A DNA stretch of 38,831 nucleotides, taken from sequence record MZ375240.1. One strand, given 5' to 3'. A program made the position numbers and the translations under genes. Positions 1 through 38,519 of the stretch are shown piece by piece; position 1 is the first letter of the stretch, and each line of letters opens with the position of its first letter. Source of the DNA: Escherichia phage T7. The notes beneath the pieces are model-generated. The model saw only the letters and a program-made list of their open reading frames with translations. It did not search any database and was not told where the DNA came from.

Positions 1-160
1 TCTCACAGTGTACGGACCTAAAGTTCCCCCATAGGGGGTACCTAAAGCCCAGCCAATCACCTAAAGTCAACCTTCGGTTGACCTTGAGGGTTCCCTAAGG
101 GTTGGGGATGACCCTTGGGTTTGTCTTTGGGTGTTACCTTGAGTGTCTCTCTGTGTCCCT
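1..160. repeat. Left 160-bp direct terminal repeat (terminal redundancy of mature T7 DNA)
   Basis: Bases 1-160 are repeated identically at 38672-38831; the sequence begins TCTCACAGTGTACGGACC, the known T7 left end. Confidence 0.97.
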
Positions 161-924: not shown

Positions 925-1278
925 ATGGCTATGTCTAACATGACTTACAACAACGTTTTCGACCACGCTTACGAAATGCTGAAAGAAAACATCCGTTATG
1001 ATGACATCCGTGACACTGATGACCTGCACGATGCTATTCACATGGCTGCCGATAATGCAGTTCCGCACTACTACGCTGACATCTTTAGCGTAATGGCAAG
1101 TGAGGGCATTGACCTTGAGTTCGAAGACTCTGGTCTGATGCCTGACACCAAGGACGTAATCCGCATCCTGCAAGCGCGTATCTATGAGCAATTAACGATT
1201 GACCTCTGGGAAGACGCAGAAGACTTGCTCAATGAATACTTGGAGGAAGTCGAGGAGTACGAGGAGGATGAAGAGTAA
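925..1278 (+). CDS. ocr: Gene 0.3 Ocr, DNA-mimic inhibitor of type I restriction-modification (also anti-BREX)
   Basis: ORF track 117 aa; highly acidic with C-terminal [11 protein letters not shown]; recognised as T7 Ocr; coordinates identical to reference. Confidence 0.97.
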
Positions 1279-1409
1279 TGTCTACTACCAACGTGCAATA
1301 CGGTCTGACCGCTCAAACTGTACTTTTCTATAGCGACATGGGGCGGCGTGGCATAGACGAAAGGAAAAGGTTAAAGCCAAGAAACTCGCCGCACTTGAAC
1401 AGGCACTAG
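1278..1409 (+). pseudogene. 0.4: Gene 0.4 remnant: first 21 codons of gp0.4 (FtsZ inhibitor) fused to 22 codons from the distal gene 0.6 region
   Basis: ATG at 1278 overlaps the ocr stop as in T7; reading frame [21 protein letters not shown] then GRRGIDERKRLKPRNSPHLNRH, stop TAG 1407-1409; genes 0.5 and 0.6 are not present. Confidence 0.6.
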
Positions 1410-1457
1410 CCAACACACTGAACGCTATCTCATAACGAACATAAAGGACACAATGCA

Positions 1458-2537
1458 ATGAACATTACCGACATCATGAACGCTATCGACGCAATCAAAG
1501 CACTGCCAATCTGTGAACTTGACAAGCGTCAAGGTATGCTTATCGACTTACTGGTCGAGATGGTCAACAGCGAGACGTGTGATGGCGAGCTAACCGAACT
1601 AAATCAGGCACTTGAGCATCAAGATTGGTGGACTACCTTGAAGTGTCTCACGGCTGACGCAGGGTTCAAGATGCTCGGTAATGGTCACTTCTCGGCTGCT
1701 TATAGTCACCCGCTGCTACCTAACAGAGTGATTAAGGTGGGCTTTAAGAAAGAGGATTCAGGCGCAGCCTATACCGCATTCTGCCGCATGTATCAGGGTC
1801 GTCCTGGTATCCCTAACGTCTACGATGTACAGCGCCACGCTGGATGCTATACGGTGGTACTTGACGCACTTAAGGATTGCGAGCGTTTCAACAATGATGC
1901 CCATTATAAATACGCTGAGATTGCAAGCGACATCATTGATTGCAATTCGGATGAGCATGATGAGTTAACTGGATGGGATGGTGAGTTTGTTGAAACTTGT
2001 AAACTAATCCGCAAGTTCTTTGAGGGCATCGCCTCATTCGACATGCATAGCGGGAACATCATGTTCTCAAATGGAGACGTACCATACATCACCGACCCGG
2101 TATCATTCTCGCAGAAGAAAGACGGTGGCGCATTCAGCATCGACCCTGAGGAACTCATCAAGGAAGTCGAGGAAGTCGCACGACAGAAAGAAATTGACCG
2201 CGCTAAGGCCCGTAAAGAACGTCACGAGGGGCGCTTAGAGGCACGCAGATTCAAACGTCGCAACCGCAAGGCACGTAAAGCACACAAAGCTAAGCGCGAA
2301 AGAATGCTTGCTGCGTGGCGATGGGCTGAACGTCAAGAACGGCGTAACCATGAGGTAGCTGTAGATGTACTAGGAAGAACCAATAACGCTATGCTCTGGG
2401 TCAACATGTTCTCTGGGGACTTTAAGGCGCTTGAGGAACGAATCGCGCTGCACTGGCGTAATGCTGACCGGATGGCTATCGCTAATGGTCTTACGCTCAA
2501 CATTGATAAGCAACTTGACGCAATGTTAATGGGCTGA
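1458..2537 (+). CDS. 0.7: Gene 0.7 serine/threonine protein kinase with host-shutoff domain
   Basis: ORF track 359 aa, recognised as T7 gp0.7; 563 bp left of its reference position. Confidence 0.95.
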
Positions 2538-7447: not shown

Positions 7448-8029
7448 TGGGACTGTTAGATGGTGAAGCCTGGGAAAAAGAAAACCCGCCAGTACAAGCA
7501 ACTGGGTGTATAGCTTGCTTAGAGAAAGATGACCGTTATCCACACACCTGTAACAAAGGAGCTAACGATATGACCGAACGTGAACAAGAGATGATCATTA
7601 AGTTGATAGACAATAATGAAGGTCGCCCAGATGATTTGAATGGCTGCGGTATTCTCTGCTCCAATGTCCCTTGCCACCTCTGCCCCGCAAATAACGATCA
7701 AAAGATAACCTTAGGTGAAATCCGAGCGATGGACCCACGTAAACCACATCTGAATAAACCTGAGGTAACTCCTACAGATGACCAGCCTTCCGCTGAGACA
7801 ATCGAAGGTGTCACTAAGCCTTCCCACTACATGCTGTTTGACGACATTGAGGCTATCGAAGTGATTGCTCGTTCAATGACCGTTGAGCAGTTCAAGGGAT
7901 ACTGCTTCGGTAACATCTTAAAGTACAGACTACGTGCTGGTAAGAAGTCAGAGTTAGCGTACTTAGAGAAAGACCTAGCGAAAGCAGACTTCTATAAAGA
8001 ACTCTTTGAGAAACATAAGGATAAATGTT

Positions 8030-10505: not shown

Positions 10506-12604
<2,099 letters not shown>

Positions 12605-12627: not shown

Positions 12628-12666
12628 ACACCAAATTCTTTGAGTAATCAAACAGGAGAAACCATT

Positions 12667-13009: not shown

Positions 13010-13417
13010 ATGCGTGACCCTAAAGTTATCCAAGCAGAAATCGCTAAACTGGAAGCTGAACTGGAGGACGTTAAGTACCATGAAGCTAAGACTCGCTCCG
13101 CTGTTCACATCTTGAAGAACTTAGGCTGGACTTGGACAAGACAGACTGGCTGGAAGAAACCAGAAGTTACCAAGCTGAGTCATAAGGTGTTCGATAAGGA
13201 CACTATGACCCACATCAAGGCTGGTGATTGGGTTAAGGTTGACATGGGAGTTGTTGGTGGATACGGCTACGTCCGCTCAGTTAGTGGCAAATATGCACAA
13301 GTGTCATACATCACAGGTGTTACTCCACGCGGTGCAATCGTTGCCGATAAGACCAACATGATTCACACAGGTTTCTTGACAGTTGTTTCATATGAAGAGA
13401 TTGTTAAGTCACGATAA
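13010..13417 (+). CDS. 4.7: Gene 4.7, function unknown
   Basis: 135 aa from the ATG at 13010 (MRDPKVIQAEI...) inside ORF-track entry 12881..13417, directly after the phi4.7 RBS. Confidence 0.85.
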   Translation: MRDPKVIQAEIAKLEAELEDVKYHEAKTRSAVHILKNLGWTWTRQTGWKKPEVTKLSHKVFDKDTMTHIKAGDWVKVDMGVVGGYGYVRSVSGKYAQVSYITGVTPRGAIVADKTNMIHTGFLTVVSYEEIVKSR

Positions 13418-13435
13418 TCAATAGGAGAAATCAAT

Positions 13436-15550
13436 ATGATCGTTTCTGACATCGAAGCTAACGCCCTCTTAGAGAGCGTCACTAAGTTCCACTGCGGGGT
13501 TATCTACGACTACTCCACCGCTGAGTACGTAAGCTACCGTCCGAGTGACTTCGGTGCGTATCTGGATGCGCTGGAAGCCGAGGTTGCACGAGGCGGTCTT
13601 ATTGTGTTCCACAACGGTCACAAGTATGACGTTCCTGCATTGACCAAACTGGCAAAGTTGCAATTGAACCGAGAGTTCCACCTTCCTCGTGAGAACTGTA
13701 TTGACACCCTTGTGTTGTCACGTTTGATTCATTCCAACCTCAAGGACACCGATATGGGTCTTCTGCGTTCCGGCAAGTTGCCCGGAAAACGCTTTGGGTC
13801 TCACGCTTTGGAGGCGTGGGGTTATCGCTTAGGCGAGATGAAGGGTGAATACAAAGACGACTTTAAGCGTATGCTTGAAGAGCAGGGTGAAGAATACGTT
13901 GACGGAATGGAGTGGTGGAACTTCAACGAAGAGATGATGGACTATAACGTTCAGGACGTTGTGGTAACTAAAGCTCTCCTTGAGAAGCTACTCTCTGACA
14001 AACATTACTTCCCTCCTGAGATTGACTTTACGGACGTAGGATACACTACGTTCTGGTCAGAATCCCTTGAGGCCGTTGACATTGAACATCGTGCTGCATG
14101 GCTGCTCGCTAAACAAGAGCGCAACGGGTTCCCGTTTGACACAAAAGCAATCGAAGAGTTGTACGTAGAGTTAGCTGCTCGCCGCTCTGAGTTGCTCCGT
14201 AAATTGACCGAAACGTTCGGCTCGTGGTATCAGCCTAAAGGTGGCACTGAGATGTTCTGCCATCCGCGAACAGGTAAGCCACTACCTAAATACCCTCGCA
14301 TTAAGACACCTAAAGTTGGTGGTATCTTTAAGAAGCCTAAGAACAAGGCACAGCGAGAAGGCCGTGAGCCTTGCGAACTTGATACCCGCGAGTACGTTGC
14401 TGGTGCTCCTTACACCCCAGTTGAACATGTTGTGTTTAACCCTTCGTCTCGTGACCACATTCAGAAGAAACTCCAAGAGGCTGGGTGGGTCCCGACCAAG
14501 TACACCGATAAGGGTGCTCCTGTGGTGGACGATGAGGTACTCGAAGGAGTACGTGTAGATGACCCTGAGAAGCAAGCCGCTATCGACCTCATTAAAGAGT
14601 ACTTGATGATTCAGAAGCGAATCGGACAGTCTGCTGAGGGAGACAAAGCATGGCTTCGTTATGTTGCTGAGGATGGTAAGATTCATGGTTCTGTTAACCC
14701 TAATGGAGCAGTTACGGGTCGTGCGACCCATGCGTTCCCAAACCTTGCGCAAATTCCGGGTGTACGTTCTCCTTATGGAGAGCAGTGTCGCGCTGCTTTT
14801 GGCGCTGAGCACCATTTGGATGGGATAACTGGTAAGCCTTGGGTTCAGGCTGGCATCGACGCATCCGGTCTTGAGCTACGCTGCTTGGCTCACTTCATGG
14901 CTCGCTTTGATAACGGCGAGTACGCTCACGAGATTCTTAACGGCGACATCCACACTAAGAACCAGATAGCTGCTGAACTACCTACCCGAGATAACGCTAA
15001 GACGTTCATCTATGGGTTCCTCTATGGTGCTGGTGATGAGAAGATTGGACAGATTGTTGGTGCTGGTAAAGAGCGCGGTAAGGAACTCAAGAAGAAATTC
15101 CTTGAGAACACCCCCGCGATTGCAGCACTCCGCGAGTCTATCCAACAGACACTTGTCGAGTCCTCTCAATGGGTAGCTGGTGAGCAACAAGTCAAGTGGA
15201 AACGCCGCTGGATTAAAGGTCTGGATGGTCGTAAGGTACACGTTCGTAGTCCTCACGCTGCCTTGAATACCCTACTGCAATCTGCTGGTGCTCTCATCTG
15301 CAAACTGTGGATTATCAAGACCGAAGAGATGCTCGTAGAGAAAGGCTTGAAGCATGGCTGGGATGGGGACTTTGCGTACATGGCATGGGTACATGATGAA
15401 ATCCAAGTAGGCTGCCGTACCGAAGAGATTGCTCAGGTGGTCATTGAGACCGCACAAGAAGCGATGCGCTGGGTTGGAGACCACTGGAACTTCCGGTGTC
15501 TTCTGGATACCGAAGGTAAGATGGGTCCTAATTGGGCGATTTGCCACTGA
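13436..15550 (+). CDS. 5: Gene 5, DNA polymerase (family A, 3'-5' exonuclease, thioredoxin-binding)
   Basis: ORF track 704 aa [13 protein letters not shown]...; recognised as T7 DNA polymerase. Confidence 0.98.
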
Positions 15551-38471: not shown

Positions 38472-38519
38472 ATGTTCCGCTTATTGTTGAACCTACTGCG
38501 GCATAGAGTCAAGTCCTAA
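38472..38519 (+). pseudogene. 19.5: Gene 19.5 truncated to 15 codons
   Basis: ATG at 38472 after agggaggagactc RBS; MFRLLLNLLRHRVKS then stop, whereas the gene encodes about 49 aa in reference T7. Confidence 0.7.

Follow-up and report, generated by a model that had tools for sequence, protein, structure and literature searches.

Between gene 0.3 (ocr) and gene 0.7 (protein kinase), the Escherichia phage T7 sequence MZ375240.1 carries a single short reading frame that starts as gene 0.4 and runs on into sequence from the distal 0.6 region. We compared the whole stretch of DNA analysed here (38,831 bp, hereafter the window) with the T7 reference V01146 (39,937 bp). The two sequences were colinear at >99.9% identity, with four deletions and 13 point differences otherwise, and the first of the four deletions lies at this locus. 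The features around its junction, in window coordinates, are:

925..1278, plus strand: gene 0.3 (ocr), the intact left flank, a 117-aa ORF identical to the reference annotation
Plus strand: overlap of the gene 0.3 stop with the gene 0.4 start, TAATG
1278..1409, plus strand: chimeric 43-aa ORF, gp0.4 residues 1-21 followed by 22 residues from the distal 0.6 region
1278..1340, plus strand: retained 5′ part of gene 0.4, codons 1-21, an exact match to wild-type 1278-1340
1341..1352, plus strand: junction with the right-hand repeat copy GGGCGGCGTGGC kept; G 1341 is common to both flanks
1342..1435, plus strand: 3′ remnant of the 0.6B / ORF 1781-1999 region, equal to wild-type 1906-1999
1436..1457, plus strand: gene 0.7 leader and ribosome-binding region, unchanged, an exact colinear match to reference 1999-2020
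1458..2537, plus strand: gene 0.7 (protein kinase), the intact right flank, a 359-aa ORF

Relative to V01146, positions 1342-1904 (563 bp) are missing from the window, with one shared G at the junction (window 1341). Both flanks are colinear and error-free, and no SNPs were found in the gene 0.3 region. The gene 0.4 start at 1278 is intact, as an initial annotation of the sequence had proposed; it overlaps the gene 0.3 stop as in the wild type, and a GAGGAGG Shine–Dalgarno-like sequence lies upstream of the unchanged start codon. Besides most of gene 0.4, the missing segment contained genes 0.5 and 0.6A, the minor E. coli promoter B (annotated at 1514 in V01146) and the RNase III site R0.5. 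The absence of the gene 0.5 and 0.6 ORFs and of the R0.5 hairpin, also part of that annotation, was confirmed against the V01146 and DQ100054 annotations. Gene 0.7 starts at 1458, 49 bp past the stop at 1409, and the alignment to reference T7 that had been proposed as a check recovered the deletion and placed the reference gene 0.7 at 2021, that is, 563 bp further to the right, exactly as first described. The annotation of the related clone T7_30L gives the protein kinase the same coordinates as gene 0.7 of the window.

The true size of the deletion is 564 bp (hereafter Δ564). One additional A follows V01146 position 1895 in two independent wild-type sequences, AY264774 and T7_10L (MZ375233). 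This base falls inside the deleted interval, so that the segment actually lost is wild-type 1342-1905 in AY264774 numbering, with breakpoints at 1341/1906. The size of about 563 bp given by the initial annotation is thus correct relative to V01146, but the real event is 564 bp and the reference is short by one base. V01146/NC_001604 lacks this A (1895/1896), which shifts the C-terminal frame of its 'possible gene 0.6B'.

The missing base also changes how the chimeric ORF has to be read. Its description as a 43-aa peptide, with 21 codons of gp0.4 followed by distal 0.6 sequence and a stop at 1409, was borne out by the sequence; the tail that follows gp0.4 residues 1-21 is GRRGIDERKRLKPRNSPHLNRH (22 residues). 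Residue for residue, this tail is the V01146 frame ending at 1972, which is annotated as 'possible gene 0.6B', and we at first accepted it as the real gp0.6B frame. We dropped this assignment since the extra A moves the frame of the real ORF: the corrected downstream ORF spans wild-type 1781-1999 and ends in ...NTLNAIS, as annotated in MZ375233, and the chimeric tail is out of frame with it. The stop codon of the real ORF lies at window 1433-1435 and that of the chimeric ORF at 1407-1409. The proposed check of the 22 C-terminal residues against the gp0.6B frame therefore succeeds with V01146, where the match is an artefact of the missing base, but fails with the corrected T7 ORF, which uses another frame. 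In the DQ100054 annotation, the 3′ end of gp0.6B is given as 'not determined'. The intact gene 0.4 start probably still directs translation of the 43-aa peptide, which would be functionless.

Gp0.4 is a two-helix, 51-aa inhibitor of FtsZ that depends on every one of V15, V22, W28, M32, L35 and Y39; a single W28L or L35P change already abolishes FtsZ binding and toxicity (PMC13423816). Only residues 1-21 are kept in the chimera, where V22, W28, M32, L35 and Y39 are lost or changed. Judged by these required residues, the window's gp0.4 is predicted to be a null allele, and the loss of FtsZ-inhibitor function suggested by the initial annotation appears well supported. By inference, the window phage should also escape CapRel-Ebc, a defence whose trigger is FtsZ-bound Gp0.4. 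Also lost from the window are gp0.5 and gp0.6, the latter reported to inhibit MreB (PMC5624674).

At the RNA level, the R0.5 stem-loop, which we located from the DQ100054 (T7.1) annotation, occupies wild-type 1428-1479 with a cut site at 1469 (−25.4 kcal/mol; z −3.0); the window lacks it. No unusual or compensating RNA structure was predicted for the new junction region (folding z −0.06). A 15-mer elsewhere in the window that gave the appearance of a relocated R0.5 belongs to the related R1.1 site at ∼5312, and none of the Rfam families covers T7 RNase III sites. Based on the known T7 processing map, the loss of R0.5 should place genes 0.3 and 0.7 together on one early mRNA, as a single RNase III product reaching from R0.3 to R1.

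The window's exact junction is present in 31 GenBank records, from T7_30L (MZ375237) to T7_300S (MZ375292), each matching in one piece over 100/100 nt and each titled 'Mutant Escherichia phage T7 clone T7_nL/S'. These clones belong to the CiPGr experiment of Yuan et al. (2022, NAR 50:13183, PMC9825161), in which the host for serial T7 transfers was E. coli MG1655 with SpCas9 and a pooled cassette library. Each cassette consisted of a spacer and 2×50-bp arms and was designed to delete a whole gene or 100 bp; in the clone names, the number stands for the transfer and L or S for the plaque size (PMC9825161). T7_10L (MZ375233) is the earliest clone of the series. Within the series (MZ375237-MZ375292), the junction was identical to that of the window at 100% over 1 kb, and clones with Δ564 span transfers 30 to 300 of the passaging on the Cas9 library host. 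Outside the CiPGr series, the window's junction was not found among 50,697 phage records or in contig collections (viral, metagenome and genome); these contig collections also lacked the second junction variant, described below.

Three further deletions distinguish the window from the reference:

Window 7044/7045: gene 1.4 deletion, reference 7608-7763, 156 bp, the CDS exactly from ATG to TAA, zero microhomology
Window 12631-12633: gene 4.3 deletion, reference ∼13353-13550, 198 bp, starting from the ATG, with CCA (3 bp) shared
Window 38503-38511: gene 19.5 deletion, reference ∼39429-39617, 189 bp, between perfect 9-bp direct repeats ATAGAGTCA

The gene 1.4 deletion looks designed, its pattern being the one expected of a 'cassette-gene' edit. 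The TAA of gene 1.4 doubles as positions −17 to −15, the opening three bases, of promoter φ1.5, which now begins TTTTACGACTCACTAAAGGAG and formerly began TAATACGACTCACTAAAGGAG. The gene 4.3 deletion leaves the last ∼14 nucleotides of the gene and is probably a designed edit that spared the gene 4.5 ribosome-binding region; T7_300S has the same junction. Most of gene 19.5 is gone, which corresponds to the undesigned 'gp19.5' loss of Yuan et al., and this junction is found in T7_300S as well. In a sibling, T7_50L, a 292-bp internal deletion of gene 3.8 at 10534/10535, again free of microhomology, looks designed; it is absent from the window, and the record's annotation shows the remainder of gene 3.8 fused to the gene 4 reading frame.

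The window also carries point changes. At window 405, an A-to-G change at the annotated +1 of φOL converts TATAAGGAGA to TATAGGGAGA, which is the consensus for initiation and probably makes the promoter stronger; the change is found in T7_30L, 50L, 150L, 200S, 240L and 300S and is absent from 10L, 20L and 40L. Two changes fall in gene 1 (T7 RNA polymerase), at window 3158 and 5168: Q184R is common to T7_30L through 300S, and H854R is private to the window. Substitutions at 12168, 16012, 29636, 32093 and 32102 (gene 4 M441I, gene 5.5 K27E, a synonymous change in gene 15, and gene 16 R806C and G809S) were absent from the six full sibling genomes that we compared, and the two gene 16 changes lie nine bases apart. 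The base following the 160-bp terminal repeat differs as well (A161C in the window; T162C in T7_30L, 40L and 50L), which may reflect assembly at the end of the repeat rather than real variation. T7_150L and T7_5t1, later clones of the series, share an 18-bp deletion (GGGTTGGGGATGACCCTT) in the left terminal repeat region that the window (99-116) does not have. The window thus has the gene 1.4 deletion, φOL A405G and gene 1 Q184R in common with the CiPGr series, and the gene 4.3 and gene 19.5 junctions in common with T7_300S, but differs from its siblings by gene 1 H854R, gene 4 M441I, gene 5.5 K27E and gene 16 R806C/G809S. From the shared junctions and SNPs, we infer that the window is a CiPGr genome-reduced clone.

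Δ564 is not the only deletion that arose at this locus in the experiment. We counted at least six alleles including that of the window: Δ564 in two variants, a 677-bp deletion (Δ677) in two variants, a 700-bp deletion in T7_200S, and a 1481-bp deletion in T7_20L, 20S and 30S. The T7_200S allele has the same left breakpoint as the window and reaches into gene 0.7. The 1481-bp deletion lies between 13-bp repeats AGGAAGTCGAGGA and is the classical H1 deletion of Studier, with breakpoints at ∼1256/2735 within the AGGAAGTCGAGG(A) repeat and a 0.3::0.7 fusion ORF; laboratory stocks acquire H1 spontaneously, and both its 0.3::0.7 fusion and its link to higher fitness have been described (PMC7261183). 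H1 and the window allele are alike in that both map to the same locus, remove 0.4-0.6 and R0.5, are viable, involve short direct repeats and were favoured in the laboratory. They are nevertheless distinct, as H1 removes 1481 bp at a perfect 12-13-bp repeat and leaves ocr and the 0.7 kinase truncated and fused into one protein, whereas the window has lost 564 bp at a 9/12 imperfect repeat and keeps genes 0.3 and 0.7 intact. We therefore rejected an identification of the window deletion (breakpoints 1341/1906) with H1, which is present in T7_20L and not in the window. In the series, H1 occurs only at transfers 20-30, and afterwards it gives way to alleles that leave 0.3 and 0.7 intact, in line with the authors' view that gp0.3 (ocr) is needed on the restricting host MG1655 (PMC9825161).

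The breakpoints of Δ564 lie on an imperfect direct repeat. Wild-type 1341-1352 (GTGCGCTGTGGC, left) and 1905-1916 (GGGCGGCGTGGC, right) match, in register, at 9 of 12 positions, and flanking similarity this good occurs in ∼1% of random breakpoint pairs (P ∼0.01), both locally and genome-wide. The estimate of at most about 1 bp of microhomology in the initial annotation is accurate for the exactly shared sequence, which is the single G, but it missed this repeat. The window allele (1a) has kept the right copy of the repeat. A second allele (1b) has kept the left copy GTGCGCTGTGGC and is carried by 10 records: T7_150L (MZ375261), six other MZ clones and OL964739-741. Allele 1b (for example in T7_150L and in T7_5t1, OL964739) has the same 564-bp deletion, register and 43-aa ORF frame as the window and differs at exactly the three mismatched positions, giving the peptide ...DMVRCGIDERK... 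in place of ...DMGRRGIDERK... in the window. The same arrangement was found for Δ677, which lies at an 8/9 repeat, CTGA[C/A]CGCT, with the right copy kept in T7_40L (2a) and the left copy in T7_240L (2b). Above-chance breakpoint similarity, together with alternative resolutions within the same repeat pair (1a/1b and 2a/2b), is what a repeat-mediated deletion leaves behind.

We considered reference bias as the source of the 'b' alleles and judged it unlikely because the CiPGr genomes were assembled de novo (PMC9825161). It is conceivable, if rather doubtful, that 1a/1b and 2a/2b are the sister products of single annealing events, in which the resected ends of a Cas9-cut T7 genome paired at a homeologous repeat, the resulting heteroduplex passed mismatch repair, and its two strands went into separate lineages upon replication. 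Alternatively, each pair may stem from two independent events and not from the two strands of one heteroduplex. We also considered φOL A405G as a marker of a common origin of 1a and 1b; it is present on both, but also on allele 2b (T7_240L) and in T7_200S, and is therefore uninformative on shared origin.

We consider it likely that Δ564 is an undesigned deletion of the CiPGr experiment that arose by illegitimate joining at an imperfect repeat and rose through Cas9 escape combined with the tolerance of T7 for early-region deletions. In this scenario, the joining would have taken place at the short imperfect direct repeat GTGCGCTGTGGC / GGGCGGCGTGGC, either by annealing of resected ends after a presumed Cas9 break inside the 0.4-0.6 cluster or by replication slippage at the repeat. 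Blunt end-joining at a cut may be another route, given that just 1 bp is exactly shared. A candidate Cas9 cut (1904|1905; protospacer 1888-1907) falls at the right breakpoint but none at the left, and with about one candidate site per 11 nt such a coincidence has a ∼15-20% probability by chance. It is therefore not significant and we did not count it as evidence, nor did we retain the idea that Cas9 cut sites set the breakpoints. The allele would then have risen because one step was enough to shed most of the Cas9 targets in 0.4, 0.5 and 0.6, which are dispensable genes; a second reason may be that T7 in rich laboratory culture intrinsically tolerates, or even gains from, early-region deletions. 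Ocr (0.3) and the 0.7 kinase both stay intact, and keeping them matters on a restricting K-12 host. Of the 66 candidate NGG protospacers that the four ORFs contain, Δ564 destroys 56 and leaves none in 0.5 or 0.6A; it would therefore be an efficient single-step escape, with the reservation that these are candidate sites and not library spacers. Counting against escape, 10 candidate protospacers survive in the retained stubs. Yuan et al. reported three losses of large T7 fragments (gp0.3-0.6, gp4.3-4.7 and gp19.5) and regarded the gp0.3-0.6 loss as outside the design and probably a CRISPR escape (PMC9825161). A comparable case is the 59-nt gene 0.7 deletion under type I-E targeting (Strotskaya et al. 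2017), in which loss of a targeted non-essential early segment lets T7 escape CRISPR interference, as proposed for Δ564; it involved another CRISPR type and a single small deletion, whereas Δ564 is much larger and removed dozens of potential targets.

Cas9 selection may, however, not have been needed at all, given that H1 wins without any Cas9. Δ564 could then be a purely spontaneous early deletion of the type described by Studier, selected only for faster growth in rich medium. The locus is a long-known site of non-essential deletions, and H1 (1257-2737, 13-bp repeat) arises spontaneously in many laboratories in association with increased fitness (PMC7261183) and occurs both in this series and in unrelated PV2238xx records. 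We nonetheless consider an origin with no role for Cas9 unlikely: H1 recurs in unrelated stocks, whereas the Δ564 junction is confined to the CiPGr records; every sampled clone from transfer 20 on has a deletion here, with at least six alleles, which fits strong directed selection; and the authors themselves attribute such losses to CRISPR escape (PMC9825161). The initial annotation had called the deletion spontaneous and undesigned. It was right about the lack of design, in that the breakpoints are off the CDS boundaries and the paper describes the loss as undesigned, but the event was very probably a selected CRISPR escape and not an accident of the phage stock.

A designed deletion by homology-directed repair, whether from a whole-gene or 100-bp design or from a mis-synthesised or chimeric cassette, would be in keeping with the designed-looking edits in the same genome (gene 1.4 removed exactly from ATG to stop, gene 4.3 from its ATG) and with the finding that only ∼42% of the cloned cassettes matched their design exactly (PMC9825161). 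The gene 1.4 edit follows its CDS precisely and shows no microhomology; Δ564, by contrast, starts in gene 0.4 codon 22 and stops 94 bp short of the end of ORF 1781-1999, and a 564-bp span over four ORFs fits neither a 100-bp nor a single-gene design. Moreover, two junction variants that differ at three repeat mismatches could not both have come from one repair template, and the paper calls the loss undesigned (PMC9825161). Together, this makes a designed origin very improbable. That the deletion is an assembly or sequencing artefact is scarcely credible, since the same junction recurs in 31 independently assembled clones over 270 transfers, the assembly was de novo and the flanks are colinear and error-free. 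Nothing specific speaks for an artefact; the series does contain small inconsistencies near the genome end, for example in T7_10L, which lacks the first base and has an additional A at 577.

Δ564 is thus real and was correctly read from the window, but it is already known, as a deposited allele of an old class of non-essential T7 early-region deletions. The dispensability of the 0.4-0.6 early gene region has been known since the 1970s. There is accordingly little new biology in the deletion itself, which is deposited in 31 sibling genomes, was reported as an undesigned loss and affects dispensable genes. For users of the window phage, it means working without the FtsZ inhibitor gp0.4, the MreB inhibitor gp0.6, gp0.5 and the RNase III site R0.5. 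The base missing at ∼1896 in RefSeq/V01146 misplaces the C-terminal frame of 'gene 0.6B' and makes the 564-bp deletion appear as 563 bp. This effect on the '0.6B' frame and the imperfect repeats with their twin resolutions, a small mechanistic detail, are minor points absent from the paper of Yuan et al. If the twin pairs are indeed sister products of single annealing events, they would be a direct in vivo trace of Cas9 breaks in T7 having been repaired by single-strand annealing and would offer a sequence-only means of telling annealing from slippage.
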